Shown here: piece by piece, positions 1 to 64,000 of the stretch | Layout of the letters: the number at the start of each line of letters is the position of its first letter | Position numbering within the stretch: the stretch's first letter is position 1 | Assembly (NCBI RefSeq): GCF_036365525.1 | Contig: NC_090382.1 | Span: 101,986,595-102,050,594, forward strand | Direction of reading: 5' to 3' | Origin: Heterodontus francisci | Lineage: Eukaryota | DNA: 64,000 nt | Position numbers and translations under genes: made by a program | Notes under the pieces: model-generated | The model's database searches: none | The model's input: the letters and a program-made list of their open reading frames with translations, nothing else | What the model was told of the DNA's origin: nothing

Positions 1-1184
1 TACCTCTGCACTTTCTACATGTTATTTCTTTATCTCTATTTCTACTAAGGCTTCTGAATCTCCTCAGCCAGACTAACCCAGAGTCAGTTTAATTGCTGCT
101 GAAATACAACTTCACAGCTGACAAAATTGGAAGGTTGGAAATCTTTCCTTATTGTCCAGGGAACAATCATGATGCTTTCTGACAGAAACATGGGGTAATT
201 TGTCTTTGTGCGATAGTGTAAATGGGTAATAATAAATTGGCAGCACATTTCACAGAGATGACTCACTATTGCACATGGTTAAAGTTTCCTGTCTGCTATT
301 CTCCAGAAAGCCTGCTGTTGAAGGATGATGCTGGAGCCCATCTTTACTCAGTCTTGCATTAATTTTACAAAGAAAAATGATTACAAACATGCAGCTCCTC
401 ACTCAAACCTTCACCCAGTTTCAGTCAGTATCTCCTTATATATACACTCAGGTAAGGCCCTAATTAACACCCTCCACATGCATATGATTAAACACAATTA
501 ACACACATTCAGTCCCACACTAAATCCGACTCGCCCAACCTCAATGACATACACAGGCTCTCTGACCCTCACAATCAAATTTAAAATCCTCATCATCATT
601 GACAAATCACTCCACAGCCTCACGCCAATTTATCCCAGCAACTTCCTGCAAGATAATCTCCTTTCACATTCACTGTCTTCCTCTCACTGTCCCCTCTCTC
701 TATTCAACCATTGATGGCAAAAAACCTTCTGTTTCCTCAGCCTGAACCTCTGGTACTCCCTCCCTAAACCCCCTCCACTCAGTTTTTCCCCCTCTTCCTC
801 ATCCAAAGCCCCACTCCCAGCCTCTGTCATTTCCCACTGCCACCATCTCTCCTCTACATTCCCATTATTTTCATCCTCCCCTCTCCCATCCATGGACATT
901 GATTCCCTGCCCTTCCCTCTTCCCTTAGTCCTGCTCCCAGCTCTGTGCTAATTTGAAGGTGAGAGTGTGCAGCAGCTGGAATCACTTCAAATAACAGCAG
1001 AACTCGGTTGGATGTGGCATTGAGGGGAGAGAGGCAAGTTATTTGTTCAATGTTGATATGTGCACCAGATCATCACATGTTGACTCAAAGCATGAAGTGC
1101 TGATAATTGACTGTAACCCACTCTATACATAACAGTTTTATATTAGTAACACTTTAATATTCACTGTTAGGAAACTTAACTTAC

Positions 1185-1454
1185 ATTGAGTCACAGAAAA
1201 ATCTGCTTTTCCTGTGAAAATAATAGAACCATTTTCCTGCACTTCACAAACATACGACTTCTCATCCTTAACTGCAACATGTTTGATTATCAGATAGACT
1301 GTGTTATTTAGTTGGATCTGATCAGTTTTCCTCCTGTTCTGCTCAGATGTGTCTCTCTGTTTCCAATGAAGACTGACTGTATCTGAGAGTTTGGAGATGG
1401 TACAGCTGAGAGTAACATCACTGCCCACCTCAGGCTGCTGTGAACTTGACTCAA
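1185..1454 (-). CDS. Ig-superfamily receptor, copy A: C2/I-type Ig domain exon
   Basis: Acceptor ttttccacag|TT, donor CAA T|GTAAGT, 270 nt, phase 1-1. Motifs GSDVTLSC, LHW and DEKSYVC include the canonical Cys pair. The gene continues beyond the left edge. Confidence 0.9.
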
Positions 1455-2282
1455 CTGTGGAAAACAGATCAATGAGATTTAGCGTAAGTCGTGACATGTA
1501 CAATCTAATGATTAGGTTCAAACTGACCTGAGGATGTGCCCATCATCAACACTTGTACCTCGCTGCAGTAAAGACTCCCGTCAGATTATACACAACTGCA
1601 TCTTATCAGTAAAATAGCACAGTGGAGATAAAAAAAAATTCTCCATTCTCCTCCACCTGCTGGAGTGTCAAGGGTCAAGTCAAGCTTACATAGATTGGAT
1701 GGTATTTGTGGATGCCTGTACAACAATGGACAGGTGGTAGAAACTCACTGGAAGTGGGTGTGATGAAAATGAAAATGCAGTCCCCGTGTTATCTGACATG
1801 GGGAAGGCTCCAGTCCTACCCTGTACTCAATCGGAATAGAACATTTCTGTAGGACCACCCAAAACATGCACTGGGAGCCTGTGCAGAAAATCGAGAGCAA
1901 ACGTCTTCACAGCCTGAGGAGTTATTTAAATTAGTAGGTTTCTAAAATGCTCTTGAGCAGGTCTCCAACCATTGAGCTTCCATGAGGAATGGCACTTCAG
2001 GAGAGGCTTGTTCTAAAAATTCCCACCCTGACTTGTATTCCTACCTGCAACATGACAAGTAAAAATCAAATCTTCAGCAGGGACGTTATTTCTAATGCAG
2101 GCCAAATAAATGATGGCAAACAACCATCTGGTGCTTGAATCATGTGACCTTCCCCATGTACCGCACCATTTGTACCATGAGCAACACTAAAAATGTAAAT
2201 GACTTGACTTTCTATTTTGGTCAATGCTTTCTGGTGCAGTTTGGACCAACACCTCAGGAGCAATGGTCTGGAGCTGGTATAG

Positions 2283-2615
2283 TGGCAGCATAGTGGCGCA
2301 GTGGTTAGCACCGCAGCCTCACAGCTCCAGCGACCGGTTTCAATTCTGGGTACTGCCTGTGTGGAGTTTGCAAGTTCTCCCTGTGTCTGCGTGGGTTTCC
2401 TCCGGGTGCTCCAGTTTCCTCCCACATGCCAAAGACTTGCAGGTTGATAGGTAAATTGGCCATTATAAATTGCCCCTAGTATAGGTAGGGAAATATATAG
2501 GGACAGGTGGGAATATGGAATTAGTGTAGGATTAGTATAAAAATGGGTGGTTGATGGTTGGCACAGACTCGGTGGGCCGAAGGGCCTGTTTCAGTGCTGT
2601 ATCTCTACATACATA
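2283..2615 (+). mobile_element. tRNA-derived HE1-like SINE
   Basis: A box TGGCGCAGTGG, B-box-like GGTTTCAATTC, and a CR1-like tail gggccgaagggcctgtttcagtgctgtat. Confidence 0.85.
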
Positions 2616-3259
2616 GCCAGGATCAAATTTTGGTGACTAGGACACATCAGAATTGGACTGTATTTTGTATCAATTTAATTTGACAGTGAACTTAACCTCA
2701 TTTAGATGTTAAATACATCACCAACCAGCATGTGCAGCTGTTTATTAATATCGTTTGTTGTCAGAATCTAAGACTTTGGTTCATTTATACAGAAGGTTAC
2801 TAAAAAGTACAAGTTCCACAGATGCTTGACTTTCTTTGGGACCTTAAATAAGTGACACATCAAACAGATTCACTGCATTACAATCAGGAGCAGTGATACT
2901 GGCCAATCGTATACCTGTCCCATAGTGCTGAGGTTTATTACTACATGTGACCTATTGATTTGTTGACGGAATTCAGTACATCTTACAGAGAGTGCACCAG
3001 TATACAGACCATAATACTCTCTGTGGGGTAGATTCCTCAGTTTGCTATTTCTGGTGAAATTGTCAAAATGTTTTTACTCATATTGACCATTTCAGGAGAA
3101 ACAATAAACACAATTTTCCCCTGGTTGTTTTCATGAGAGATGCAATCTGCACTGGGTGATATAAATCTCATATGATTCTTGCAATCTCTCAGCATTACAC
3201 ATGAAATTATTTAGAGAGAATCATATTATTGAACATATTCTAGACTTTGTTCCACTCAC

Positions 3260-3601
3260 CTTTGATCCCAAATATTTCATACAGTTTCAGGATTTTTTTA
3301 CTGGGCTGTGTTTGAGTCAGGATGAACAATCCAGCAAGTTTAAATGAGGGTTTTCTAAATCTCAGGTTAAAGGTACCATAATCCTGGTCTATCTTCCAGT
3401 ACAAGTCACTGTTTATAAAGTATCCACTCAATTGTGCTGTCCACCAGCCTGAACTACTTTTGTGAAAAGTACCCAGCTGCTGGATTTCTTGCCCTGAGTG
3501 TGGTTTCCATTCCCAGACAACACGGAGAATTTCAGGATTGTCTGGTCCTTTTAATGAAATGTCATCGCCCTCACCCAAAAAATAAAGATTAATTGGGTTG
3601 C
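3260..3601 (-). CDS. Ig-superfamily receptor, copy A: V-type Ig domain exon lacking both canonical cysteines
   Basis: Acceptor ctctttctaacag|G, donor AAA G|GTGAGT, 342 nt, phase 1-1, open frame. V-set pattern: GDDISL (B), VVWEWKP (C), FNLRF (E), LAGLF (F). Confidence 0.85.
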
Positions 3602-5066
3602 CTGTTAGAAAGAGGAACAATGTAAGTATTTTCATATCTAATCTCACGTTCTTAATTCAGTGTTTGTAAAGATTAACATTCTTAATCTATTTCCAGTCAC
3701 ACTTTAATATCAGGGCACTCACTGGGCAGTCCTGCTTCTATTGCTGTCTTTCAGTGAGGCAGTGAACCTGGAGTGCTGTTGAGGCTCTTTCATGGTACTT
3801 TGAACAGCTGGACCCCCACCCTGTGCCCCTGCATCATCCAGCAAAGAATGCACGGTCTCATGACTCTCCTGCACCTTCCACCAGCGCAGATAATTTCACC
3901 TCAGTGGGTATGAGTTTGGTCTTGGAATCAAGGTCACAAGCTGGTGAAAGCACTCCACACTCACCTGAGCAACTGGCTGAGGCCGGGACAGCCGAGGCCA
4001 CTGACAGTCTGAGGACTCTGGGTGATCAGGCCCATGCTAAGCCCCAGGCTGATGACAAGCCTCTGGTGTTGACAGCACAGGGCATGCTGGAGTTGCAGAG
4101 AGAGGTAAGGCAACATCTAGTGGAGCTGCCAGAGGCAATGCACAGCCATGAGCAGATGATGGAGGATTCCATCCATGCCTTGAGTGCTCCATGTCTCAGG
4201 CCTGTGAGTTCACGGCTTCCTCCATTGAGAGGTTGGCAACCCTCATGGGGAGCCAGATTCCACCGATGTGCACAGGCCTGCACACTATCACTATGGCCAT
4301 GACCGCAATGCAGCATTGGCAAGGCAAGAGCAGGACAAGGTGCCTGGAGTCTTCTGCAGGTTCTCGTCCTTCTCTGGGCAGCAGGGTGGTTCAAGTGAGC
4401 CTTGAAAGGGAGGAAGAGAAGCTGACCTCCACATGTGGGGGCTTCCCTCAGGGCAGAGTGTGGACAGCTCTTCCTCAGTCCCTCAATCAGTAGGCCCAGC
4501 TCCAGTAGCCGTGATGCCTGAGGAGAGTCCTATACCTGTGCAGGAAACTTTCAGGCAGCAGGGGCCCTTCAGGCCTCAGGCAGCCAGAGGACAGCTGTCG
4601 AAGTCATCCCAGGCCAAGCGGCAGCCCGATCGGCAACACACTTCTAATGGCCTTACTAAATTCCACCCACTATTATAACAGAAAACAGAACAATTCTATT
4701 AGACATTGAGTTTCTCTGTTACTACCAAAAAATCAAAATAAAAAGAGAGGACATGGTTAAATCCATGTTGCAGAAAAGAATGACTTCAAATCTCATTGTG
4801 ATTCCTGGTCTACAGGGCACATTATCAGGTTGAACTGGAGTGAACGGGAGAGAAAGTGGTGCAGGATGCGGTTATGTTGTGTCTCCCCCCCCACCCGCCC
4901 ATTTGTCTCGAGATGGGGTTTCCTAAGGTGGGAGGGGATCAGACAGTTCCAGTGTCCTCTCTCCCCGAGTCTGAAATGAGGGAGAGAGAAACCAGCTCTT
5001 GGAATCTGACTTCTAATCTCTTTCTGGGCTTTGCCTTATCTGTGAAGGTGATAACTGTGGCTGTGA

Positions 5067-5338
5067 AGGAGTTTGCAAGTTCTCCCTGTGTCTGCGTGGG
5101 TTTCCTCCGGGTGCTCCGGTTTCCTCCCACATGCCAAAGACTTGCTGGTTGATAGGTAAATTGGCCATTAGCAATTGCCCCTAGTATAGGTAGGTGGTAG
5201 GAAAATATAGGGACAGGTGGGGTTGTGGTAGGAATATGGAATTAGTGTAGGATTAGTATAAATGGGTGGTTGGTGGTCGGCACAGACTCGGTGGGCCGAA
5301 GGGCCTGTTTCAGTGCTGTATCTCTAAACTAAACTAAT
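5067..5338 (+). mobile_element. 5'-truncated HE1-like SINE (copy A only)
   Basis: Matches 2365-2610; (taaac)n tail; empty site at ~40480 in copy B. Confidence 0.85.
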
Positions 5339-6527
5339 GCACTTCACGTTAATGCATTCGAATATTTCCAAGTGGCCTCTGGTGACATTGGTCATATTGT
5401 TCAGTCAATTGTTCGTCATTCACTGGACTGTATTTCCACTTTGAAATCATCATCTGCCTTTATTTTAAGGGTAAGACTAAATTAATAAAATCCTCATGAT
5501 AACCATTTTATCCATACTTTCACATGGGATTTTTCTAAAGCAGTAAATCCCATTGTCTGTGAGCTTTGATAAAATAACAACTCACATCACAATTACTAGA
5601 AACACAATGGCTCTGTACACATTGTATTCACAATGAAGTTTAAACACATTTGGACACAAAACCAAGATGTGACCCAATGTGAGGATCAGCAACAAACCTT
5701 CAAACCTTTTCAAATTAACATTTATCCAAACAGTAACTTTTACGACAAAAGCAAAAGACTGCAGATGCTGGAAATCTGAACTAAAAAGAGAAAATGCTGG
5801 AAACGCTCAGCAGATCAAGTAGCATCTGTGGAGAGCGAAACAGTTCAGGTCGATGACCTTTCATCAGTTTTGACAGACCCGCTGAGTCTTTCCAGCATTC
5901 TCTGCAGATATTATAAGGTGCACAGGCTCGAACAACAAAGGATTCTCAACTATCCCTAATTTTACAAAAACAATTATTCACGTTTAAAATAAAAACAAGA
6001 AATGCTGGAAATACTCAGCAAGTCTGGCAGCATCGGTGGAGAGAGAAGCAGAGTTAACGTTTCAGGTCAGTGACCCATCATCAGACTCATCATATTGACA
6101 TTTGACTACTGTTATACATTTGAAACCGTTCTGTACCACATACAATCTGTTGACTTTTGAATGATTCAATGTTAAATACAATGGAATACATAATGGCTCC
6201 ACAGAGTGAATGAGACACTTTGAAATATGACATCCAGCTGTGTGATGGCAGGTTGTTAGCAAGAGTAGATTCATAGACAGATAGAGGGATAGATAGATAG
6301 ATAGATAGAAGGAGATGAAGAACAATGAGAAATATGCTCACAGTTTTCATTTTATTCAGTTGTTCCATGATCGGAATATACAAAGTGAAAAACACATTGT
6401 CTTTAAAGGAGCAGGGACTTGAAAATAAAAGCCTTTGTTCCTTTTGCAATAGAAGCTGCATGAATTCATTAAACCCTGTGATATAGTAAAACAATATGAC
6501 TGTGATTGGTGGAAATAAGACACTTAC

Positions 6528-6588
6528 TTTGTGTGAAAACAGACGGAATTAGAAACACCAAGAAAATGAACATCAAATCAGTTGGCAT
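6528..6588 (-). CDS. Ig-superfamily receptor, copy A: signal-peptide exon (MPTDLMFIFLVFLIPSVFTQ + phase 1)
   Basis: ATG at 6588, hydrophobic leader, donor CAA A|GTAAGT at 6528/6527, upstream acceptor ttcttacag|G at 6613/6612. Phase 1 joins in frame to the 3601 exon (A+GC = Ser). Confidence 0.85.
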
Positions 6589-6834
6589 TTTGCTGCAGAT
6601 TCAGTCTTTTCCCTGTAAGAAATATACATATAGTTATAGATATATATCATGTATCTTTAAATCCAATATATACCACCAGAAAATCACCTGACATAAAACT
6701 GAGGCATATTTCTTCAATGTGTTTAACACGACATTCTTTTGAGGAAAAGAAATAAGCTAAAACAACTTGATAAATTATTTCCTTATTCAAACATAGAACT
6801 GTAAAATGGACAATAAACATCTTTTGTAAAGTGC

Positions 6835-6856
6835 TCCGCCTCTTCCTGTGATAAAT
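6835..6856 (-). promoter_or_regulatory. Candidate promoter: overlapping ETS (ACAGGAAG) and GATA (TGATAA) sites; identical in copy B at ~42051-42072
   Basis: ctccgcctcttcctgtgataa lies ~250 bp upstream of the leader ATG. A possible 5'UTR intron spans 6613-6687 (cag|gtgatt ... ttacag). Motif match only. Confidence 0.35.
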
Positions 6857-8197
6857 GTATTTAAAATTACTCATCCTAGATTATGATGGACCATGTATAA
6901 TGTACCCCTTATCCACCAGTCACATTGACTTTCCAACTGAAAATGAATGAATTGAATTAGGTAGAAAACGAGGAATTTAATTACCTGTTTTCGGAAGAGT
7001 GGACAAAATGTAAACTTACGAAAGATCTCTTCACTCAAATTTTCACTTACACCTAGGTAAATAAAACTAATCAGAAAACTTAGGAATTTAAATAACTGAG
7101 TATGAATTAACAGCAATCAATATTTTGTCCTCAACTGCTGCTACACATATTGAGAATATTGTTACAATAATATGCTTTCAAAGGCATTATCAATGCAGAA
7201 TCACCTATGATCAACATCATGGGGGAGACACTATTGACCAGAAACTCAACTGTACCAGGAATATAAATGTCGTGGCTGGTGAAGAAGGTCAGAGGCCGGG
7301 TGCACTGTGGCAAGTGCCTCCCCAATATCTTTCCACCGAAGTCAGGCATCTGATGGAATACTATCTGGGTGTAAGGATGGTTGCATTTGCAACAACACTC
7401 AAGAACAACATCTCCCATCAGTTCTTGTAGGTTTGCTGTATGCTCTGATATGTGAGACGTGAAAGAACACATGTACTGGATCAAGCCAAGAACATTTCTC
7501 AGCTCCTTCTTGTCATTGGAGCTTCCATCTCAGAAATAGCTGTGACTTTTTCAGGACTCGGCTATCAGATGTGTAAACCATTCCAAAGAACTGACATTCT
7601 GTCACTTTCACAGTGCATTTATTTGCGATTAGCTTGATCCCATCTTTCTTAGTTTCCTCCATGGTTTCATGTAGATGGCAGTTATGGTCTTTTTATCTCC
7701 ACCATAGATCTGGATATCATGAGCTTTGCTGATTGCTCCTTTGCATCCCTGTATATCTTGTCTATTTTCTGCTGGAACACATCCTGGCTCACTTCAAGGC
7801 CAAGAGGTAAACACAGGAATTTGTACGTCCAAAGGGTGTGTTGAATGTTGTCAACAGCGAATATTCCTCATCAAGCTTCACGTTCCACTAGCCATTTCCG
7901 GCGTCTAGCTTTCTTTTATTTCACATTTCCCCTGTTGCTCTGCCTCTAGTAATTCCTTTACCATCTACTTTCTTTGTTTTGCACATCTTTTCCTGGTGAT
8001 TGGGCTTGTCACAAGCTCTGCACTTTGATTTGTACGCAGGACATTTCTTTCTGTCTGTGAACTCATGTCGCCATCCATTTCTCATAGAGAGATACTGCAC
8101 CGAAACAGGCCCTTCAGCCCACTGAGTCTGCGTTGACTATCAACCACCCATTTGTACTAATCCTACATTAATCCCATTTTTCCCTGCTCACATCCCC

Positions 8198-11100
8198 ATA
8201 GAACATAGAACATAGAACACAGAGCAGTACAGCACAGTACAGGCCCTTCAGCACATGATGTTGTGCCGAACCTTTAACCTACTCTCGGAACAAACTACCT
8301 ACATACCCTTCATTCTACGATCATCCATGTACCTATCCAAGAGTCGCTTAAATGTCCCTAATGTACCTGATTCTACTACCACCGCTGGCAGTACATTCCA
8401 CGCACCCACCACTCTCTGGTAAAGAACCTACCTCTGACATCTTCCCGAAACCTTCCTCCAATCACCTTAAAATTATGCCCCCTGGTGATAGCCCTTTCCA
8501 CCCTGGGAAAAAGTCTCTGACTATCCACTCTATCTATGCCTCTCATCATCTTGTACCCCTCTATCAAGACACCTCTCATCCTTCTTCGCTCCAATGAGAA
8601 AAGCCCTAGCTCCCTCAACCTTTCTTCGTAAGACATGCCCTCCAGTCCAGGCAGCATCCTGGTAAATCTCCTCTGCACCCTCTCTAAAGCTTCCACATCC
8701 TTCCTATAATGAGGCGACCAGAACTGAACACAATATTCAAAGTGTGGTCGAACCAGGGCTTTATAGAGCTGCAGCATAACCTCACGGCTCTTAAACTCAA
8801 TCCTCCTGTTAATGAAAGCCAACACACCATACGCCTTCTTAACAACCCTGTCAACTTGGGTGGCAACTTTGAGCGATCTATGGACATGGACCCCAAGATC
8901 CCTCTGTTCCTCCACACTACCAAGAATCCTGTCTTTAAGCCTGTATTCTGCATTCAAATGCGACCTTCCAAAATGAATCACTTCACACTTTTCCAGGTTG
9001 AACTCCATCTGCCACTTCTCAGCCCAGCTCTGCATCCTATCAATGTCCCGTTGCAACCTACAACAGACTTCCACACTATCCACAACTCCAGCAACCTTTG
9101 TGTCATCAGCAAACTTGCTAACCCAGCCTTCCACTTCCTCATCCAAGTCATTTATAAAAATCACAAAGAGCAGAGGTCTCAGAACAGATCCCTGCGGAAC
9201 ACCACTGGTCACCGAGCTCCAGGCTGAATACTTTCCATCTACTACCACCCTCTGTCTTCTATGGGCCAGCCAATTCTGTATCCAGACAGCCAAATTTCCC
9301 TGTATCCCATGCCTCCTTACTTTCTGAATGAGCCTACCATGGGGAACCTTATCAAACGCCTTGCTAAAATCTATATACACCACATCCACTGCTCTTCCTT
9401 CATCAACGTGTTTTGTCACATCGTCAAAGAATTCAATAAGGCTTGTGAGGCATGAACTGCCCCTCACAAAGCCATGCTGACTGTCTCTAATCAAACTATG
9501 CTTTTCCAAATAATCATAAACCCTGATTCTCAGAATCCTCTCCAATAATTTGCCCACTACCGACGTATGACTGACTGGTCTATAATTCCCAGGGTTATCC
9601 CTATTCCCTTTCTTGAACAAGGGAATAACATTTGCCACCCTCCAATCATCCGGTACCACTCCAGTGGACAGTGAGGACGCAAAGATCATCGCCAAAGGCG
9701 CGGCAATCTCTTCCCTCGCTTCCCGTAATATCCTTGGGTATATCCCGTCTGACCCCGGGGACTTATCTGTCCTCATGTCTTTCAAAATTTCCAGCACATC
9801 CTCCCTCTTAACATCAACCTGTTCGAGCATATCAGCCTGTTTCACGCTGTCCTCACAAACAACCAGGTCCCTCTCACTAGTGAATACTGAAGCAAAGTAT
9901 TCATTTCGGACCTCCCCCACCTCCTCCGACTCCAGGCACAAGTTCCCTCCACTATCCCTGATTGGCCCTACCCTCATTCAGGCCATCCCCTTGTTCCTCA
10001 CATAAGTGTAGAACACCTTGGGATTTTCCTTAATCCTACCCGCCAAGACCTTCTAGCTCTCCTAAGTCCATTCTTCAGTTCCTTCCTGGCTACCTTGGAA
10101 CCCTCTAGCGCCCTGTCTGATCCTTGCTTCCTCAACCTTAAGTAAGCTTCCTTCTTCCTCTTGACTAGCTGTTCCACATCTCTTGTCATCCAAGGTTCCT
10201 TCACCCTACCATCCCTTCCTTGCCTCATCGGGACAAACCTATCCAGCAGTCGCAGCAAGTGCTCCCTAAACAACCTTCACATTTCTGTCGTGCATTTCCC
10301 TGAGAACGTCTGTTCCCAATTTATGCTCCCCATATCCTGCCTAATATCATTGTAATTTCCCCTCCCCCAATTAAATATTTTCCCATCCCGTCTGCTCCTG
10401 TCCCTCTCCATGACTATAGTAAAGGTCAGGTAGTTGTGATCACTATCACCGAAATGCACTCCCACCAAGAGATCTGCCACCTGGCCTGGTTTGTTGCCAA
10501 GCACCAAATCCAACATAGCCTCCCCTCTAGTCGGCCTATCTACATATTGAGTCAGGAAACCTTCCTGGACACACCTGACAAAAACTGCTCCATCCAAACT
10601 ATTTGCACTAAGGAGGTTCCAATCAATAGTAGGGAAGTTGAAGTCACCCATGACAACAACCCTGTTACTTCTGCACCTTTCCAAAATCTGCCTCCCAATC
10701 TGTTCCTCCATGTCTCTGTTGCTATTGGGGGGTCTATAGAAAACTCCCAATAAAGTGACTGCTCCTTTCCTGTTTCTGACTTCCACCCATAATGACTCAG
10801 ACAAACCCTCCTCGACGACCTCCCTTTCTTCAGCTGTGATACTATCCCTGATTAGCAATGCCACTCCACCACCTCTTTTACCTCCCTTCCTATTCCTTTT
10901 GAAACATCTAAACCCCGGAACATCCAACATCCATTCCTGCTCCTGTGATATCCAAGTCTCCGTAATGGCCACAACATCATAGCTCCAAGTACTGATCCAT
11001 GCTCTAAGTTCATCACCCTTATTCCTGACACTTCTTGCATTAAAATAGACACACTTCAACCCATCATACTGGCTGCAACTTTGCCCTGTCAACTGTCTAA

Positions 11101-12610
11101 CCTTCCTCGCAGACTCTCTGCACTCTGTATCTGCCTGTTCAACAGCTACCCCATCCACTGATCCGTTGCTCCGGTTCCCATCCCCCTGCCAAACTAGTCT
11201 AAACCCTCCCGAAGAGCGCTAGCAAACCTCCCGCCCAGGATATTGGTGCCCCTCCAGTTCAGATGCAACCCGTCCTGCTTGTACAGGTCCCACCTTCCCC
11301 AGAAGGTATCCCAATGATCCACATATCTGAAGCCCTCCCTCCTACACCAGCTCTGTAGCCACGTGTTCAGCTGCACTCGCTCTCTGTTTCTAGCCTCACT
11401 AGCACGTGGCACCGATATCAATCCTGAGATTACTATCCGGCTCATCCTGCCTTTTAGCTTCCAACCTAACTCCCTATATTCACTTTTCAGGTCCTCATCC
11501 CTTTTCCGAGCTATGTCATTGGTACCGATGTGTACCACAACTTCTGGCTGCTCCCCCTCCCCCTTAAGAATCCCGTAGACTCAATCCGAGACATCCCTGA
11601 CCCTGGCACCCGGGAGGCAACATACCATCCGGGAGTCTCGTTCGCGACCACAGAATCTCCTGTCTGTTCCTCTTACTATTGAATCTCCTATCACTATCGC
11701 TCTCCTATTCTCCCCCCTTCCCTTCTGAGCCACAGAGCCAGGCTCAGTGCCAGAGACCTGACCGCTGTGGCTTTCCCCTGGTAGGTCATCCCCCCCAACC
11801 GTATCCAAAACGGTATACTTATTATTGAGGGGAACGGCCACAGGGGATCCCTGCACTGTGCGCCTATTCCCTTTCCCTCCCCTGACGGTCACCCAGCTAC
11901 CTTTATCCTGTAATTTAGGTGTCACTACTTCCCTATAACTGCTCTCTATCACCCCCTCAGCCGCCTGAATGATCCGAAGTTCATTCAGCTCCAGCTCCCT
12001 AACGCGGTCTGTGAGGAGCTGGAGTTGGGTGCACTTCTCACAGGTGAAGTCAGCAGGGACACAAGTGGTGACCCTTACCTCCCACATCCTGCAAGAGGAA
12101 CATGCAACTGCCCTAGCTTCCATCCCTTCTGCTCTAAATTGACACAGAGATTAAGTAAAAATAAAGGAAAACCTTACCTTACCAAACCCTCCACACAAGA
12201 GTCCTTTTTTTTGGTTAGAGGAGGAGGATGGGTGGGAGACACTACAGGTGCAGTGTTTCGGGTTTAGCCACTGCCCGAATATATAAGTTCACTTACCCAG
12301 CAGTCCCCGTGTCCGCGTCCGCCGAATCACTAGGTAAGTACTTTATAGTGAAACTTACCTTCCCAGCTGCCCCCTGGCTCGCACTCTCACTGCTACCGCT
12401 GTTCAAAAAGAAGCTGCCGAATCGCTAGGTAAATACTTTATACTGAAACTTACCTTCCCAGCTGCCCCCTGGCTCGCACTCTCACTGCTACCGCTGTTCA
12501 AAACGAAGCTGCCGAATCGCTAGGTAAGTACTTTATACTGAAACTTACCTTCCCAGCTGCCCCCTGGCTCGCACTCTCACTGCTACCGCTGTTCAAAAAG
12601 AAGCTGCCAA
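8198..12610 (-). mobile_element. Full-length CR1 (HER1-like) LINE #1, disrupted
   Basis: ORF1 11194-12123 has a Zn finger (CSSC..CEKC), coiled coil and SGNH esterase motifs (GDS, GTND, DGLH), with one nonsense codon. ORF2 APE-RT (GVPQGSVL, FADD) spans 8376-11158 with a stop and frameshifts. The 3' end has a (TTCTATG)n tail. Inserted inside a SINE; absent from copy B. Confidence 0.95.
12325..12610 (-). repeat. Three tandem 95-bp monomers at the 5' end of CR1 #1
   Basis: taggtaa...gaagctgccgaatcgc repeats at 12331, 12426 and 12521. Confidence 0.9.
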
Positions 12611-20689: not shown

Positions 20690-23600
20690 TAGAACATAGA
20701 ACATAGAACATTACAGCGCAGTACAGGCCCTTCAGCCCTCGATGTTGCGCCGACCTGTGAAACCATCTGACCTACACTATTCCATTTTCATCCATATGTC
20801 TATCCAATGACCACTTAAATGCCCTTAAAGTTGGCGAGTCTACTACTGTTGCAGGCAGGGCGTTCCACGCCCCTACTACTCTCTGTGTAAAGAAACTACC
20901 TCTGACATCTGTCCTATATCTATCACCCCTCAACTTAAAGCTATGTCCCCTCGTGTTTGCCATCACCATCCGAGGAAAAAGGCTCTCACTATCCACCCTG
21001 TCCAGCCCTCTGATTATCTTATCTGTCTCTATTAAGTCACCTCTTCTCCTCCTTCTCTCTAACGAAAACAACCTCAAGTCCCTCAGCCTTTCCTCGTAAG
21101 ACCTTCCCTCCATACCAGGCAACATCCTAGTAAATCTCCTCTGCACCTTTTCCAAAGCTTCCACATCCTTCCTATAATGCGGTGACCAGAACTGCACGCA
21201 ATACTCCAGGTGCGGCCGCACCAGAGTTTTGTACAGCTGCAGCATGACCTCGTGGCTCCTAAACTCGATCCCCCTACTAATAAAAGCTAACACACCATAT
21301 GCCTTCTTAACAGCTCTATTAACCTGGGTAGCAACTTTCAGGGATTTATGTACCTGGACACCAAGATCTCTCTGCTCATCTACACTACCAAGAATCTTCC
21401 CATTAGCCCAGTATTCTGCAATCCTGTTACTCCTTCCGAAGTGAATCACCTCACACTTTTCCGCATTAAACTCCATTTGCCATATCTCAGCCCAGCTCTG
21501 CAGCCTATCTATGTCCCTCTGTAACCTACAACATCCTTCGGCACTATCCACAACTCCACCGACCTTCGTGTCATCCGCAAATTTACTAACCCACCCTTCT
21601 ACACCCTCATCCAGGTCATTTATAAAAATGACAAACAGCAGTGGTCCCAAAACAGATCCTTGCGGTACACCACTAGAAACTATACTCCAGGATGAACATT
21701 TACCATCAACCAGCACCCTCTGTCTTCCTTCAGCTAGCCAATTTCTGATCCAAAGCACTAATTCACCTTCAATCCCATACTTCTGTATTTTCTGCAATAG
21801 CCTACTGTGGGGAACTTTATCAAACGCCTTACTGAAATCCATATAGACCACATCCACGGCTTTACCCTCATCCACCTGTTTGGTCACCTTGTCAAAAAAC
21901 TCAACAAGGTTTGTGAGGCACGACCTACCCTTCACAAAACCGTGCTGACTATCTCTAATGAACTTATTCTTTTCAAGATGATTATAAATCCTATCTCTTA
22001 TAACCTTTTCCAACATTTTACCCACAACCGAAGTAAGGCTCACAGGTCTATAATTACCAGGGCTGTCTCTACTCCCCTTCTTGAACAAGGGGACAACATT
22101 TGCTATCCTCCAGTCTTCCGGCACTATTCCTGTCGACAATGACGACATAAAAATCAAGGACAAAGGCTCTGCAATCTCCTCCCTGGCTTCCCAGAGAATC
22201 CTAGGATAAATCCCATCTGGCCCAGGGGACTTATCTATTTTCACACTTTCCAAAATTGCTAACACCTCCTCCTTGTGAACCTCAATCCCATCTAGCCTAG
22301 TAGTCTGTATCTCAGTATTCTCCTCGACAACATTTTCTTTCTCCACTGTAAATACTGACAAAAAATATTCATTTAACACTTCCCCTATCTCCTCCGATTC
22401 CACACACAACTTCCCACTACTATCCTTGATTGGCCCTAACCTATCTCTAGTCATTCTTTTATTCCTGATATACCTATAGAAAGCCTTAGGGTTTTCTTTG
22501 ATCCTATCCACCAATGACTTCTCGTGTCCTCTCCTTGCACTTCTTATCTCTCCCTTTAGATCCTTCCTGGCTAGCTTGTAACTCTCAAGCACCCTAACTG
22601 AGCCTTCACGTCTCATCCTAACATAAGCCTTCTTCTTCCTCTTGACAAACTCTTCAACTTCTTTAGTAAACTACGGCTCCCTCGCTCGACAACTTCCTCC
22701 CTGCCTGACAGGTACATACTTATCAAGGACACGCAGTAGCTGCTCCTTGAATAAGCTCCACATTTCGATTGTGCCCATCCCCTGCAGTTTCCTTCCCCAT
22801 CCTACGCATCCTAAATCTTGCCTAATCGCATCATAATTTCCTTTCCCCCAGCTATAATTCTTGCCCTGCTGTATATGCCTGTCCCTGCCCATCGCTAAGG
22901 TAAACCTAACCGAATTGTGATCACTATCACCAAAGTGCTCACCAACTTCTAAATCTAACACCTGGCCGGGTTCTTTACCCAGTACCAAATCCAATGTGGC
23001 ATCGCCCCTGGTTGGCCTGTCTACATACTGTGTCAGAAAACCCTCCTGCACACACTGGACAAAAACAGACCCATCTAAAGTACTCGAACTATAGTATTTC
23101 CAGTCAATATTTGGAAAGTTAAAGTCCCCCATAACCACTACCCTGTTACTCTCGCTCCTGTCAAGAATCATCTTTGCTATCCTTTCCTCTACATCTCTGG
23201 AACTATTTGGAGGTCTATAGAAAACTCCCAACAGGGTGACCTCTCCTCTCCTGTTTCTAACCTCGGCCCAGACTACCTCAGTAGACGAGTCCTCAAACGT
23301 CCTTTCTGCCGCTGTAATAGTTTCCTTGATTAACAATGCCACACCCCCCCCCTCTTTTACCATCTTCTCTGTTCTTAGTGAAACATCTAAATCCCGGAAC
23401 CCGCAGCATCCATTCCTGTCCCTGCTCTACCCATGTCTCTGAAATGGCCACAACATCGAGATCCCAGGTACCAACCCATGCTGCAAGCTGACCCACCTTA
23501 TTCCGGATGCTCCTGGCGTTGAAGTAGACACATTTTAAACCAAGCTCTTGCTTGCCAGCGCCCTCTTGTGTCCTTATAACCTTATCTCTGCCCTCACTAC

Positions 23601-25003
23601 TCTCAACATCCTGCACACTGGAACTACAATTTAGGTTCCCATCCCCCTGCTGAATTAGTTTAAACCCCCCCGAAGAGCACTAGCAAATCTCCCCCCCAGG
23701 ATATTGGTACCCCTCTGGTTCAGGTGAAGACCATCCTGTTTGTAGAGGTCCCACCTACCCCAGAAAGAGCCCCAATTATCCAGGAAACCAAAACCCTCCC
23801 TCCTACACCATCCCTGCAGCCACGTGTTCAACTCCTCTCTCTCCCTATTCCTCACTTCGCTAGCACGTGGCACGGGCAACAACCCAGAGATAACAACTCT
23901 GTTTGTTCTCGCTCTAAGCTTCCACCCTAGCTCCCTGAATTTCTGCCTTAAATCCCCATCTGTCTTCCTACCTATGTCGTTGGTGCCTATGTGTACCACG
24001 ACTTGGGGCTGCTCCCCCTCCCCCTTGAGGATCCCAAAAACACGATCCGAGACATCACGTACCCTGGCACCTGGGAGGCAACACACCAACCGTGAGTCTC
24101 TCTCATTCCCACAAAACCTCCTATCTGTTCCCCTAACTATGGAGTCCCCAATGACTAATGCTCTGCTCCTCTTCCCCCTTCCTTTCTGAGCAACAGGGAC
24201 AGACTCTGCGCCAGAGACCTGTATCCCATTGCCTTCCCCTGGTAAGTCGGCTCCCCCAACAGTATCCAAAACGGTATACCTGTTGTTGAGGGAAACGGCC
24301 ACAGGGGATCCCTGCACTGCCTGCTGGTTCCCTCTCCTTCCCCTGACGGTAACCCATCTACCTTCTTCTTTTACCTGAGGTGTGACTGCCTCCCGATAAC
24401 GCCTCTCAATAATCCCCTCCGCCTCCCGAATGATCCGAAGTTCCTCCAGCTCCAGCTCCAGTTCCCTAACGCGGTCCTCGAGGAGCTGGAGCTGGGTGCA
24501 CTTCCCGCAGATGCAGTCAGCAGGGACACCCTTGGCGACCCTTACCTCCCACATTCTGCAGGAGGAACATTCAACTGCCTTAACCTCCATTCCCACTATT
24601 CTAAATTCCCAAGTTTTTAACCAATCACACGATAAAACAAGAAGAGAAATAGAAAAAGCCTTACCTTACCTACACACAACCGAGTCCTTTTTTTTAGGTA
24701 AGAGGAGGAGGGCGGGTGGGAGACACTACAAGAGTAGTGTCTCGGGTTCGGAAACAGCCCAAATATATAGGTTTCTACTTACCCAGCAGTCCCTGCTCCA
24801 CCGAAACTCCCGATGAAATTGACTTCCCAGCTGTTCACTCCTCGCTCGCAATGCCTGTGCTCCTGGAAAAGCTGCACAACGAAAAGGTAAGAGAATTTAC
24901 ACAGCCCAAATATATAGGTTTCTACTTACCCAGCAGTCCCTGCTCCACTGAAACTCCCGATGAAATTGACTTCCTAGCTGTTCACTCCTCGCTCGCAATG
25001 CAG
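20690..25003 (-). mobile_element. Full-length CR1 LINE #2, nearly intact
   Basis: ORF1 23655-24596 is intact. ORF2 20772-23616 has one poly-G frameshift (~23345) and one TAG (~22671). 3' microsatellite tail present. Empty site in copy B at ~55780. Confidence 0.95.
23655..24596 (-). CDS. CR1 ORF1p (Zn finger, coiled coil, SGNH esterase)
   Basis: 313-aa open frame (ATG at 24590) with CSSC/CGKC, VIGDS, HIGTND and DGLHLN. Confidence 0.9.
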   Translation of the reverse strand: MGMEVKAVECSSCRMWEVRVAKGVPADCICGKCTQLQLLEDRVRELELELEELRIIREAEGIIERRYREAVTPQVKEEGRWVTVRGRRGNQQAVQGSPVAVSLNNRYTVLDTVGGADLPGEGNGIQVSGAESVPVAQKGRGKRSRALVIGDSIVRGTDRRFCGNERDSRLVCCLPGARVRDVSDRVFGILKGEGEQPQVVVHIGTNDIGRKTDGDLRQKFRELGWKLRARTNRVVISGLLPVPRASEVRNREREELNTWLQGWCRREGFGFLDNWGSFWGRWDLYKQDGLHLNQRGTNILGGRFASALRGGLN

Positions 25004-27015: not shown

Positions 27016-29638
27016 CAGCCCTTAGTACACAAGATTTAGTTTATGAATAAATAGTTAATTTGTTGTTGTTGAAAGATACCTGGTTTGGTGTATTTGATTC
27101 TGAGGGTTAATAAAGTGTTTAATTTGGCTGTTTTCTGGTCGGTGAGAAAACTTTAATAATATGCTGTGACCTGTGGAGTGATGGGACTGAATTGACAGTG
27201 CATTGCTCCTGCCTTGGTCATAACAAAACGATGACAATCTAATATTGAAGGAACAATCCCAATCTCAGTCTAGCTCATTACTCACTATTAAATCCAGTAT
27301 AGCCTGGCATCTTGTTGGTTCTAGAACATATTGCTGCAAAAAACGATACAAATGCATATAAGAAATTCACTCCCTTTCTAACTTGAACTACTCTGCTCTT
27401 AACAACTTATATGAAAATTAAAGTCTCCAATTAAAGCAGCTCTGCTTTGGCTACAAACCCCTCTGATTTAATATAATCTGCTACTAAATGACCGCGATCA
27501 GGAGATGTGTGGACAGTGCTCATTACAGTTTTAACTCATCTTTTATTGCTCAATTCAAAACAGAGAATAACCGCTGATTGTTTTCGCTTAACTATAACCT
27601 ATCCTACTAATATTGCAATAGTATCTTTCATCAGTAAGCCTCCCCCACCTCCTCTTCCAGTTTCCCTGTCTTTTCTAGAGATGGATATTGCACAATGAAG
27701 TTATAAGAAATGATTTACAATGTAATCGGACGTTGCAGGTTTTATTTTCAAACAGTCTGTGTGATAATGAAAGTGCAACTGGTTAAAAACAATAACTTCT
27801 GCACAGAAACAGGAAGGATCAAAAACACATTGAATGTTCCCTTGTGGTTATGTCAAAGTCTAGTAAGTGACAGATGGAGGTATTTTCACTGGAGAAGATT
27901 GAGGGGGACACGTGGCATAACCCAAGTCTTTAAAATGATGGGAGTGACGGACAATTTAGGTGTGAGCAGATAGTTTAACTTGAATTATGAATATAAAACT
28001 AGAGGATCTGGGTAAAAATATGAAACCTGAGATGAAAAAGAACTTTATTTCCCTGCAGAATGCAGGTGGTGTGGAGGAAATTCCCAGAAAATACATAATT
28101 AAAAAGGATCCTTTTTAACGTTCTTCTCAGGATGGGGGCAACACTGACCCCTGAGGTGGTGATGGTCCGTCCCCCTCCCAATTACCTTCCCTTCTCACAG
28201 AGACTGATATTTAGCCACTCATCTCCCACAGACTCTCCTCAGTTTGGAACAGACAATGGATGAGAAGGGACTCTCAGAACTTGGATTAAGAGATGTCAAC
28301 TCAGCAACTAGATTGTAATGAGTTCTGTTCATGTTATCTTATGCAACATAAATGAGATGAGTGGAATCCAGTTGGTTGAATATCTCAAAAAGGTTAATTA
28401 CAGCTAAACTATTACACAGTACAGAACTTTTTACAAAACCTTACTGTGGGTGTTACAGTTGCAGAGTGAATCTGGCTTGTAGTTACATGACTACATCCTG
28501 CTACTTGGCTCATTAGCATACTAATATCTTAAAGGGACATCACTCTTAAAGGCAATCATGCAACACAGATCACATGTCACTTCGGCTGAGGGAATCTCTC
28601 TTGATCTCATTTCCATTCACTGTTATACCTCTCTAAATATTGATGAACTATTTGTGATCCCGAAAGTAGGGAGTGGATCCAGGTTTATAATAAAGAGGAG
28701 CAGATCACAGGTCTGAAAGTTTCACACAGAACAATATCAGGATTTTGCTCGGCCATCTTGTCATGTAGAAGGTTCTGAAGAAGAGTCATTTTCAACTCGA
28801 AACGTCAACTCTGTTTCTCTCTCCACAGATGCTGCCAGACCTGCTGAGTATTTCCAACACTTACTGTTTTAATGTCAGATTTCCAGTATTTGCTTTTCTT
28901 GTCATGTACAGAACTGGAGCTGTGCTGGATTCAAAGGGGTTTATCATCTACACAGATCCATTACCTTGGATGCATTCCAATGAATGTTTAACAGAGTGGA
29001 TTCAAAAGGAATGGGAAATGTACTCACCCCATTATTGCAACATGGTTAAAGAGAAATAAAAATAGAAAATGCTAGAAAACACTCAGCAGATCAGGCAGCA
29101 TCTGTGGAGAGGGAAATATATTTAATGTTTCAGGTTGATGACCTTTAATCAGAACTGGAAGATGTTCAAGATTTAACAGATTTTAAGCAAGTATAGAGCC
29201 AGGGAAAAGGGGGCAGGAAAGAACAAAGGGGAAGGTCTGTGATCGGGCGGAGGGCAGGAGTGATTCAATGAGAAAAGGAAATACTTTCCCATTCCATTCT
29301 GAATCAATCTCTTTATCACAATCGATCAGTACAATCAGCAAACACTTGATTATCAGCGTTTTTAAATGATTGTTAAGGATAAATTAATAAAACATTCCCA
29401 AAGCTGTGATCATTCCCATTGAATTTGCATATTGTCTTTTCTACAACTTTTATTATGATGAGTATTTTGCTGTTAATCTTGTAGTCGTGTTCTGCTGCAA
29501 ACCATTCCCTGTATGAGAGCATGGAGACAACCTTCTCCTGAGATTCCACTATCTCGTTGTGTGAACAGGTGCTGGGAGGTGAATGGGTGATACCCATATT
29601 TACTGAGCCGAGTTTCATTCCTGCTCATTTATCGCAGC

Positions 29639-29657
29639 TCAGCTCCATTCAGCTCCT
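29639..29657 (-). CDS. Candidate terminal coding exon (RGAEWS*)
   Basis: Acceptor ctctctctgcag|A, in-frame TGA at 29641-29639, and a minus-strand AATAAA near 29450. Confidence 0.35.
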
Positions 29658-30308
29658 CTGCAGAGAGAGTCCAGCTGACTGGGACCACACAGTTACAAAT
29701 CCACATCCCAACATTACAAACAACACACAGGCTGCCTCACTATGTCACCGCCAACCCCTACAGTTATAAAACTGTGAGCCCAGAGTGCAGCCTCACCAAC
29801 CACGAGTGGAGATCAGGAATTCAGCCCAACGTCTGCATGCATTTCCATCCATTGCAATTTCATAGTGACCTGGAAAGTTAGCACTTGTAAAGTAAAATAA
29901 CAGATACTGAAACTGGGAATTATTGAAACACACTTTGGGAGATAAACTAATCCAGCTCAATAAAAATATTACCAGAAAATAAATGCAGAATAAAACCACC
30001 TAAAGTTTCTAAGTTGGATTGATCTAGTTTCCAGAGACTGCAGATCTCCATGGTCACAGACATGATGGGCTGAATGGCCTCTTTCTGTGCTGTAAATGCT
30101 GTGTAATTCTATATAAATATCCTGAACAATATAGATTACCTCACATCCTTCATGTAAATTCAATCTTTCCACTAGTTACCACATTTCTGTGCCTCTTACC
30201 CTGTTAGTTCCCATTCTATATCTCCTCATTTCACCCAAAAGCACACAATCTTGAAACACTCCTTCCTCGAACACAATCTGGACAGGGTTCCCCGAAAGAG
30301 AAACTTAC

Positions 30309-30358
30309 CTTTTGAATTGACCGAGATTTGACCATGAGTAAATTAGGTAAACACAAAC
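30309..30358 (-). CDS. Candidate cytoplasmic exon (VCVYLIYSWSNLGQFK+)
   Basis: Acceptor cttcctctgtaacag|G, donor AAAAG|GTAAGT, 50 nt, open in phase 0 after the TM exon. Confidence 0.5.
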
Positions 30359-30971
30359 CTGTTACAGAGGAAGTAGTTTCCAAAGGGACACATTAATTTC
30401 TGAGCCCAACTCTATTCTAGCTCTCTACTGCCACCAGGTGACCTCAATAAGAATAACAGCATCAAAAAATATACTCAAATTGTCACAAATTATAGTGCGA
30501 TTTTCAGTTCATCGTAATTCTTAAAGGTCATGCGTTCACTGTTAAAATATTATGTGATCTCAAACTGTAGTTTAAACTTTCATTTAAATATTGAACATTG
30601 CACTTAATTTAAATGAATCATCAATTGGTGCATTTAAATAAATCTGTTGCTCCTCAGTGGATGAAATCTTAGAGCTTTGAATGTTTTTCCTGCTTTCAAT
30701 ATCAGAAACTCCCACTTCCCATCAGGCTCAAGGAAGAAACCAGGGAAAACTTTGAGCATCATATGTCTTTATCAATGAATGGAAAATGCTCAAACGAGGA
30801 ACTCAACCTTTTTATACTTTTTATTCACTATCACAAATATTCCTCTTGGAAATTATTGTCTTGAAAATTGTCAGAAAGCAATATCTGTTCAAGGAACATC
30901 AGTTTTCTCAGTGTCAAGTGACAGTTCAGCACTAATTGCTGATTTGCTGAAAAGTTTAAAGAAATTCTTAC

Positions 30972-31081
30972 TCTGTTCATCCTCTTCAAGCAGCAAATTA
31001 GTCCAATAGCAAGGCCCAGTTTAACAAACAAGTAACCAGAAACTGTGATGATCCAAATGTCTGGAAGTGGTCTCACTCTCA
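30972..31081 (-). CDS. Transmembrane exon with an intramembrane Lys (RVRPLPDIWIITVSGYLFVKLGLAIGLICCLKRMNR), probably of copy B
   Basis: Acceptor tttatcctgcacag|TG (phase 1), donor AGA|GTAAGA (phase 0). A ~23-aa hydrophobic stretch is followed by CC and a basic stop-transfer segment. Confidence 0.75.
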
Positions 31082-31199
31082 CTGTGCAGGATAAAGTTCA
31101 GATTTACAGTTTCACTCACCATCTTGTTTGATATTGAAAATCTCCTGCCAGTAATTCATGAAAAGATGTGGAAAGTGAAAATATTCTGCTTTAGACTCG

Positions 31200-34475: not shown

Positions 34476-34944
34476 TTGTCGTGTGTGTTACACTCACAAC
34501 GCACGAGCCTTCAGTTAGAATGAGAGTTATGAGGTACAGATGTTTCTGTTGGGTTGTTGGGTTTGTATTAGTCATGATGTAGAGCATTCTAGAGAAAGTC
34601 TTAGACTCAGGTAAAGGTTTGCTGACAATTCTTTTGTTATTTACAGTTACTATATATATTCACCATAAGCCACATAAAACAACATCTTTGGTGCTGCTAA
34701 ACCTTCTTCTTCTCAAGCTTATCTCCTGTGACTGTTACATCATCACTCGTACAGTGGGAGGGATCTCTCTCACTGTCTTTGGTATTAATCCTTTACATCC
34801 TTACACTACAGTTTCCAGGATCAGCTGAGGCAGACAGAGAGGATTCTCTGAGCCTGAAGAAAGAAGACTTTCAAATCCAATGCTTGCAGCTGGCACTTAT
34901 TTTTGGTGTGTTTATTTTGGGCATTTTGTCTTGGAATTCTGATT

Positions 34945-37900: not shown

Positions 37901-38203
37901 CAACTGAGTGGCTTGCTAGGCCATTTCAGAGGGCATGTAAGAGTCAACCACATTGCTGTGGGTCTGGAGTCACATGTAGGCCAGACCAGGTAAGGACAGC
38001 AGATTTCCTTCCCTAAAGGACATTAGCGAACCAGATGGGTTTTTACAACAATTGACAATGGTTTCATGGCCATCATTAGACTAGATTTAATTCCAGATTT
38101 ATTAATTAAATTCAAATTCCACCTTCTGCTGTGGTGGGATTCGAACCCATGTCCCCAGAGAAATACCCTGGGTCCAGTGATAATACCACTACGCCACTCC
38201 CTA
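34945..38203 (-). mobile_element. Near-full-length ORF1-less LINE (CR1/L2 super-group, here 'family B') with a tRNA-like Pol III head
   Basis: Box A TGGCGTAGTGG at 38196-38186 and box B GGTTCGAATCC at 38147-38137. APE motifs: NIWGL, ILTES, YRPP, VGDFN, DLVLTN. RT motifs: QFGF, LDIKAAFD, GVPQGSVLGP, FADD. The ORF is broken by several stops and frameshifts; the 3' end is A-rich. Confidence 0.9.

Positions 38204-41443: not shown

Positions 41444-41444
<1 letters not shown>

Positions 41445-41523
<79 letters not shown>
41445..41523 (+). repeat. (GATA)n microsatellite, much longer than its paralog at 6288-6308
   Basis: Direct reading. Confidence 0.95.
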
Positions 41524-41524
<1 letters not shown>

Positions 41525-41743: not shown

Positions 41744-41804
41744 TTTGTGTGAAAACAGACGGAATTAGAAACACCAAGAAAATGAACATCAAATCAGTTG
41801 GCAT
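41744..41804 (-). CDS. Ig-superfamily receptor, copy B: signal-peptide exon, identical to copy A
   Basis: Same sequence and splice sites as 6528-6588, offset 35216. Confidence 0.75.
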
Positions 41805-43294
41805 TTTGCTGCAGATTCAGTCTTTTCCCTGTAAGAAATATACATATAGTTATAGATATATATCATGTATCTTTATATCTAATATTTACCACCAGAAAAT
41901 CACCTGACATAAAACTGAGGCATATTTCTTCAATGTGTTTAACACTACAGACTGTGAAGGAAAAGAAATAAGCTAAAACAACTTGATAAATTATTTCCTT
42001 ATTCAAACATAGAACTGTAAAATGTACAATAAACATCTTTTGTAAAGTGCTCCGCCTCTTCCTGTGATAAATGTATTTAAAATTACTCATCCTAGATTAT
42101 GATGGACCATGTATAATGTACCCCTTATCCACCAGTCACATTGACTTTCCAACTGAAAATGAATGAATTGAATTAGGTAGAAAACGAGGAATTTAATTAC
42201 CTGTTATAGGAAGAGTGGACAAAATGTAAACTTACGAAAGATCTCTTCACTCAAATTTTCACTTACACCTAGGTAAATAAAACTAATCAGAAAACTTAGG
42301 AATTTAAATAACTGAGTATGAATTAACAGCAATCAATATTTTGTCCTCAACTGCTGCTACACATATTGAGAATATTGTTACAATAATATGCTTTCAAAGG
42401 CATTATCAATGCAGAATCACCTATGATCAACATCATGGGGGAGACACTATTGACCAGAAACTCAACTGTACCAGGAATATAAATGTCGTTGCTGGTGAAG
42501 AACCTCAGAGGCCGGGTGCACTGTGGCAAGTGCCTCCCCAATATCTCTCCACCAATGTCAGACGTCTGATGGAATAATATCTTGGTGTAAGGATGGTTGC
42601 ATTTGCAACAACACTCAAGAACAACATCTCTCATCAGTTCTTGTAGGTTTGCTGTATGCTCTGATATGTGAGATGTGAAAGAACACATGTACTGGCCAAG
42701 AACATTTCTCAGCTCCTTCTTGTCGTCGGAAGCTCCATTGCAGAAATAGCTATGACTTTTTCAGGACTCGGCTTGACTCTATCAGGTGTGTAAACCATTC
42801 CAAAGAACTGACATTCTGTCATCTTTACAGTGCATTTATTTGCGATTAGCTTGATCCCAGCTTTCTTAGTTTCCGCCATGGTTTCATGTAGATGGTAGTT
42901 ATGGTCTTTTTTATCGACATCATAGATCTGGATATCATCAGCTATGCTGATTGCTCCTTTGCAGCCCTATATATCTTGTCTATTTTCTGCTGGAACACCT
43001 CCTGGCTCACTTCAAGGCCAAGAAGTAGACACAGGAATTTGTACGTCCAAAGGGTGTGTTGAATGTTGTCAACAGTGAATATTCCTCATCAAGCTTCACG
43101 TTCCACTAGCTATTTCTGGCGTCTACCTTTCTTTTCTTTCACATTTCCCCTGTTGCTCTGCCTCTGGTAATTCCCTTACCATCTTCATTGTTCTGCACAT
43201 CTTTTCTGGTGATTGGGCTTGCCACAAGCTCTGCACTTTGATTTGTATGCAGTACATTTCTTTCTGTCTGTGAGCTCATGTAGTCATCCACTTC

Positions 43295-63860: not shown

Positions 63861-63937
63861 TTTAGTGCGATCAGAGATAGAGCAGGTCAGGGTAACCGTG
63901 TCTCCCTCAGTCACTGCATCAGATGGTTCAGCTGTGA
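63861..63937 (-). pseudogene. Truncated C2-type Ig exon (VTAEPSDAVTEGDTVTLTCSISDRTK), cut off by a tRNA-head repeat
   Basis: Acceptor ttttcttgcttccacag|TC (phase 1) and a clear A-B strand motif EGDTVTLTC. The sequence then switches to a SINE/LINE head (63740-63860) with an in-frame stop. Confidence 0.8.
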
Positions 63938-64000
63938 CTGTGGAAGCAAGAAAATCATTTACATTTTAAACAATGACTTGACCATTGAAAACAATGGCAA

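Follow-up and report, generated by a model that had tools for sequence, protein, structure and literature searches.

In a 64,000-nucleotide window of the Heterodontus francisci genome (NC_090382.1, positions 101,986,595 to 102,050,594), we found the first exons of a gene (gene A) that encodes a membrane receptor with eight immunoglobulin (Ig) domains. With slightly better than even confidence, we read its outermost domain (D1), which is hypervariable and free of a disulfide, as likely binding a changing ligand, the family to which it belongs as one of brakes and accelerators, and gene A itself as a non-braking competitor that lacks the immunoreceptor tyrosine-based inhibitory motif (ITIM).

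Structure of gene A and its first domain

Three exons of gene A are located in the window: exon 1 (6528..6612 (-)), which equals the start of database model P0048 and consists of 24 nucleotides followed by ATG at 6588, a signal peptide, and a phase-1 donor; exon 2 (3260..3601 (-)), which encodes D1, a Cys-less V-set domain; and exon 3 (1185..1454 (-)), which encodes D2, a C2-type Ig domain with the canonical Cys pair and YxC in the F strand. Through intron 3 (1..1184 (-)) the gene runs on outside the window, and the remainder (G000:C12:101986043 down to 101955354) encodes D3 (V), D4 (C2, with WxC), and D5 (Cys-less V), and then, further left of the window, D6, D7, D8, the transmembrane (TM) segment, and two tail exons. 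Splice sites of the leader, D1, and D2 exons are AG/GT; all three exons are in phase 1 and give an open frame once spliced, and their 224 residues match P0048, in agreement with an earlier note on this DNA that had described them as clean. Junctions 6528-3601 and 3260-1454 were placed using splice signals and the database model. The reconstruction from 12 exons, all open and with canonical splice sites, was letter-for-letter identical to P0048 (912 amino acids). The V-C2 layout proposed from the window had to be given up: the protein consists of a leader, [V*-C2-V-C2]x2 (V* being the D1- and D5-type V domain), TM, and the two tail exons, and the two four-domain units are 62% identical to each other.

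D1 contains no Cys anywhere, with Gly18 (3548-3546) at the B-strand site, Leu94 (3320-3318) at the F-strand site, and W29-x-W31 in the C strand, as had been noticed previously. No family was matched in a Pfam search of D1. The AlphaFold2 model (pLDDT, 87.9; alignment of 22 sequences), one of the checks recommended earlier, has a V-set Ig fold: the top match was NTB-A (Z, 13.7; root-mean-square deviation (rmsd), 2.0; 101 aligned), and that in Foldseek was 2B4. Rat CD4 D3-D4 (Z, 11.2; rmsd, 2.3; 105 aligned) had 20% identity, the highest among 50 fold matches. A four-domain fold prediction was poor (pLDDT, 47.8) and was left unused.

The absence of the disulfide is a property of the family. Profile searches for V* gave 245 hits in 201 proteins, 220 of them full length and 175 distinct; a B-strand Cys was found in none of the 175 and an F-strand Cys in 14, the F site being occupied chiefly by Leu, Trp, or Phe. 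Since the loss is family-wide in both sharks and bony fishes, it may be at least as old as the split between them. Bulky residues (Leu, Trp, or Phe at the F site, W31, and W53) would pack the core instead of the disulfide. In D6, the C2 domain of the second unit (G000:C12:101969845-101969573), the F-strand Cys is replaced by Trp, so that this domain should also lack a disulfide; YxW or FxW was found in 35 of 122 D2/D6-type domains.

The Trp/Tyr-rich loop of D1 described earlier was confirmed (seven W/Y/F in residues 46-75; 3375..3464 (-)), but it is a trait of the family rather than a peculiarity of gene A: the family median is five, and at least seven are present in 30% of 83 non-redundant domains. 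In the model, these residues appear to correspond to the C'-C''-D region. Among 83 non-redundant N-terminal domains, mean entropy was 2.81 bits in residues 46-75 and 1.58 elsewhere (p 3e-10, a nominal value since the sequences are related), and the same region had 1.13 bits in inner V* domains versus 2.66 in N-terminal domains subsampled to equal n. Between gene A and its paralogues B and C, nonsynonymous (dN) and synonymous (dS) divergences were 0.39-0.44 and 0.21-0.55 in D1 residues 44-77, and 0.11-0.14 and 0.45-0.64 in residues 78-113, respectively. Because the variability is restricted to the outermost domain, the aromatic stretch is likely a ligand-binding face. This retains part of the earlier proposal of an aromatic patch as a ligand binder, as hypervariability is expected of a binding face; on the other hand, W53 is near-invariant and likely structural, W57 is frequent in the family although gene A has Leu there, and the remaining aromatics vary. 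A rod of V-C2 pairs would present the variable C'-C''-D face, which would bind a pathogen or a polymorphic ligand on host surfaces.

Family distribution and tail classes

A protein search with D1 returned 42 proteins, and a four-domain profile 138; the 120 matches listed from the latter were all chondrichthyan (chimaera included), with names that were nearly all 'uncharacterized' and otherwise generic. A further profile search gave 46 hits, 20 of which were looked up, and this, together with a bony-fish profile search, added sturgeons, paddlefish, bichir, bowfin, eels, Albula, and a mormyrid. The family is, therefore, hosted by sharks, rays, chimaera, and early-branching bony fishes, and representative bony-fish members have 25-31% identity to gene A across the whole unit. 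The chondrichthyan expansion suggested earlier is correct as to expansion in cartilaginous fishes, but the family is not confined to them. Within the limited reach of the profile searches, tetrapods gave no member and other teleosts no convincing one. The weakest hits (Triplophysa, Betta, Syngnathus, and three unnamed ENA multi-repeat proteins), of which only P0172 was read, were taken as non-members, and CD22-like hits (E, 7e-11 and 2e-5) were set aside with a query coverage of less than 40%. No description of the family was found in the searchable literature (subscription journals being outside its scope), including the supplement of PMC3964593. The family is unnamed and without a named orthologue, as the earlier note had held for this receptor and as the protein searches bear out.

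ITIM tails of the family are spread over up to five exons, with the motifs IHYGSV and VIYAQI. Among 126 database representatives, 64 have an ITIM tail without the charged-TM pattern, 19 have a TM Lys and a short tail without ITIM, five have a TM Arg without ITIM, six have neither feature, and in 32 no TM was detected; both tail classes were also seen among sturgeon, bowfin, and mormyrid members. In the Heterodontus genome, genes B and C and P0127 are of the ITIM type and P0086 is of the TM-Lys type. ITIM tails versus charged-TM short tails are the layout of paired receptors, and this layout was found here, with similar ectodomains, in one cluster; the family is most likely one of predicted paired inhibitory and activating receptors. 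From what is generally known of paired receptors, ITIM members would recruit phosphatases of the SHP-1/2 type, and TM-Lys members would pair with an adaptor bearing the ITAM (immunoreceptor tyrosine-based activation motif). One zeta/FcR-gamma-family TM exon is present in the genome; no hit came from a profile search for DAP10, although this is no proof that the gene is absent.

As a germline candidate for brake/accelerator control in natural killer-like or myeloid cells of sharks, the family is conserved, clustered, and fast-evolving, and it has been labelled in databases as 'uncharacterized' or with chance names, its D1 escaping Pfam. P0001-P0005 and P0147 carry the unit three or four times in tandem (up to 1720 amino acids), and an eel model reaches 2139 amino acids, although some of these may be fused models; because the number of units varies in this way, the length of the rod would vary widely.

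Loss of ITIMs in gene A

Gene A and the neighboring gene B are 99.3% identical at the nucleotide level across 21 kb from D3 onward. At the protein level, identity is 64% in D1 (dS, 0.29), 91% in D2, and 97-100% in D3-D8 (dS, at most 0.036). A 10.8-kb deletion in gene A, with 6-nt microhomology, removed the donor of c1 and the exons c2 and c3, which carry the first ITIM; at the last ITIM, Tyr is changed to Ser, and the tail is in frame and without tyrosine. In the genome sequence, the TM segment also differs from that of gene B by Gly-to-Arg. In an alternative database isoform (P0051), c1 is read through and a single Tyr, outside any ITIM, is retained. Gene A would stem from a recent duplication or conversion of the inhibitory gene B, keeping a different D1, and would then lose signaling through the deletion and the Tyr-to-Ser change; on sequence grounds, it is likely a recently de-braked duplicate. 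Since both ITIMs are lost, its product is likely a non-braking decoy: without either brake motif, it would compete for ligand, and the cell would not be braked. Because the differences are almost restricted to D1 and the tail, genes A and B form a ready-made test pair for ligand specificity and for the loss or flip of a braking signal.

RNA evidence came from four runs of one sample, which have no RNA label on record and in which spliced contigs were found. The TM-to-c1 junction was present in four of the four runs, c4-to-c5 in three, and TM-to-c4 in two. One run showed the gene A letters at the last ITIM (depth of approximately 426 of 1283); none of the four showed the TM Arg letters, all TM depth being Gly letters even where the gene A tail letters were present. 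The letters seen across the four runs, therefore, give some RNA support to the ITIM-less tail and none to Arg.

Several observations weigh against the reading of gene A as a non-braking competitor with a ligand-driven D1. The RNA, all from a single sample, is mostly of the gene B type, and A and B share an identical TM-to-c4 junction. The dN/dS of the D1 loop (approximately 0.8-1.8 over 33-34 codons) fits relaxed constraint and diversifying selection equally. Furthermore, two ITIM-bearing ray models (P0073 and P0081) have Arg at another TM position, outside the pattern counted.

An unlikely alternative is that gene A is a newborn activating receptor, in which ITIM loss and the TM Gly-to-Arg change would permit pairing with an FcR-gamma-type adaptor, a member of whose family is represented by the TM exon mentioned above. 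The three genomic changes all point in one direction relative to a 99% identical neighbor, and Arg at this TM site is also found in five ray models, all without ITIM. In a tree of 22 rows (P0072 and P0134 not included), three ray Arg models grouped apart from gene A; two changes were forced by the starred branches, and a single change was obtained in 0% of the bootstrap trees. Because these TM-Arg, ITIM-less ray genes arose separately, an activating switch stays alive as a rival. The Arg allele was, however, seen in none of the RNA runs; variants can be dropped from contigs, but the change may also be an assembly difference or a private allele. The predicted adaptor pairing follows the general outer-TM Arg rule.

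An equally improbable reading is that of gene A as a duplicate in decay within a birth-and-death cluster, its tail losses being functionless. Broken pieces are found in the cluster (a leader-only copy, two orphan TM-Lys exons, one of them frameshifted, and a D4 fragment), a paralogue at 86.7 Mb of the same contig has stops, and gene A letters are rare in the RNA. Decay is, however, difficult to reconcile with 12 of 12 open exons with canonical splice sites, a shortened tail that is in frame, dN below dS in D1 residues 78-113 and in D2, and transcription of gene A tail letters in one run.

CD2/SLAM-like homophilic or intra-family adhesion by D1, with no outside ligand, is less probable still. 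NTB-A, 2B4, CD48, and CD84 are among the best fold matches of D1, and the canonical disulfide is absent from their first domains. Nevertheless, their Z values are near those of many other V domains (13.7, 13.3, 12.8, and so on), identities are 8-18%, tails in the present family have ITIM-type motifs, and the variability of D1 would fit an arms race better than self-binding. The V-set fold is shared with the first domains of NTB-A, 2B4, and CD48, which differ in sequence, domain order, and tails, and the disulfide loss is likely convergent.

Named receptor families and genomic setting

A whole-genome search gave 64 exon matches to major histocompatibility complex (MHC) class I, all on C29 or small scaffolds and none on C12, which carries the receptor cluster; most of the 64, several with equal scores, belong to an expansion at G000:C29:32-67 Mb. 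TPI1, a neighbor gene of CD4, is on the unplaced scaffold C111. In the synteny comparison with the MHC and CD4 loci recommended earlier, the receptor cluster is not MHC-linked, and, judged by TPI1 and the markers on C12, it is probably away from the CD4 locus. Markers on C12 are MED7 (104.5 Mb) and the tails of clustered protocadherins (110-112 Mb); in humans, these genes are at 5q31-33, near the TIM genes.

The V-C2-V-C2 ectodomain typical of CD4 and LAG-3 is present, as V*-C2-V-C2 twice in gene A, and a fourth-domain F-strand WxC, tolerance of Cys loss in V domains, and opposing tail signals within one family are also held in common (PMC10768021). On the other hand, WxC was found in 76 of 76 D4/D8-type and in 0 of 122 D2/D6-type domains, whereas CD4/LAG-3 have it in both D2 and D4, and the disulfide is absent from the first V domain here and from the third there (PMC10768021). 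CD4 is defined by the LCK-binding tail motif Cx(C/H), and LAG-3 by a tail of a single exon with (F/Y)xxL(D/E) (PMC10768021). The former is absent from the tails of P0048, P0050, and relatives, and the latter differs from a tail of up to five exons with IHYGSV and VIYAQI; signaling would, therefore, use a predicted ITIM pair or TM Lys instead of an LCK clasp or FxxL. The present family also differs in repeating the unit up to four times and in forming a tandem multigene cluster at a different locus. It is very improbable that the gene A protein is a CD4/LAG-3-type co-receptor for MHC class II: in spite of the V-C2-V-C2 unit, the WxC in all D4/D8-type domains, weak LAG-3 profile hits (E, 6e-4), the identity with rat CD4 D3-D4, and CD4 and G6f-like clusters nearby in the Atlas, it has no Cx(C/H) or FxxL(D/E) tail motif and no WxC in D2-type domains, the family is multigene and hypervariable, TPI1 is on another scaffold, and true CD4 and LAG-3 already exist in sharks (PMC10768021).

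The nearest named look-alikes by language-model features in the Atlas, a lead only, were the G6f-like and CD4 clusters, except for a cluster auto-named 'Contactin-2' (0.96). Teleost G6fL also has four extracellular Ig domains, but it is a collagen binder whose own tail contains an ITAM and YxN (PMC3528668), whereas the present family has ITIMs or a charged TM; the tail of gene A contains no Tyr, its paralogues are of the ITIM type, and no G6f-like protein turned up in sequence searches with family profiles. DICPs likewise form a multigene group of Ig receptors in fish, built of D1-D2 or D1-D2-D1-D2 units, but C23 and C104 are retained in their domains, frequently alongside additional cysteines, and their genes show MHC linkage (bioRxiv 10.1101/2021.06.11.448072); none of the 175 V* domains has both of these Cys, D1 never has a B-strand Cys, and the cluster lies on a chromosome other than that of the MHC. 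MDIRs of skate and zebrafish are multigene activating/inhibitory Ig receptors, present also in cartilaginous fish, with CD300/pIgR-like V domains (PMC3031540); no MDIR-named protein was among the matches listed, and D1 here has no Cys.

The family is not CD4, LAG-3, or G6F-like, since the defining tail motifs and the D2 WxC of the CD4/LAG-3/G6F group are absent; nor is it DICP, and it is probably not MDIR. A link to CD4/LAG-3, G6F-like, and DICP receptors had been drawn previously; it survives in G6f-like and CD4 being the nearest look-alikes, not as membership of any of them. The V-C2-V-C2 unit, the D4/D8 WxC, the weak LAG-3 hits, and the Atlas neighbors suggest distant kinship with CD4/LAG-3/G6F, and the CD4-like unit bears on the origins of these receptors. 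A bolder and doubtful reading places the family on a paired-receptor branch, unrecognized so far, of the CD4/LAG-3/G6F lineage. This branch would date back to the origin of jawed vertebrates, with losses in tetrapods and most teleosts, and would use a V domain that is hypervariable and free of a disulfide to sense a polymorphic ligand, which could be MHC or a pathogen mimic. Gene A would then be an inhibitory-to-activating switch in the act, by TM Gly-to-Arg, as independently in rays.

Nine genome matches to D1 were found, all on C12 at 101.67-102.10 Mb. The cluster is a tandem array with the inhibitory genes B (P0009/P0050) and C (P0008), the TM-Lys gene P0086, and fragments, and also contains P0127, an inverted and divergent ITIM gene. 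A copy of the gene A leader exon with an identical peptide (41744..41828 (-)) is within a duplicate of window positions 3842-8198 and is broken, D1 and D2 being missing; positions 39262-43410 and 38203-38826 are a 90-95% identical duplicate of the upstream region, leader, and introns of gene A, from which D1 and D2 are deleted. At 30972..31081 (-), the family is represented by an orphan TM exon of the activating type (TM Lys), with no Ig exons joined and no tail exon found in this copy, and at 63861..63938 (-) by a truncated D4-type exon fragment. Two broken TM-Lys modules flank gene A, one in the window (27608-31192; tail exon not found) and the other at G000:C12:101938930-101946070 (frameshifted). 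Splicing of gene A onto the downstream TM-Lys exon was rejected because this exon is frameshifted. Losses of activating members seem frequent in this cluster. A broken divergent paralogue with stop codons (G000:C12:86670027-86703428), 15 Mb off, is orthologous by similarity to the intact P0159/P0184.

An ab initio exon scan of the cluster flanks gave nothing beyond retroelement frames and one exon resembling a class A G protein-coupled receptor, directly past the cluster (G000:C12:102155425-102155694). In the window, retroelement copies of the long interspersed nuclear element type with long open frames are located at 8206-12370, 20690-24806, 43692-47551, and 34939-37712, and a reverse-transcriptase-like frame of 632 amino acids at 22670-20775.

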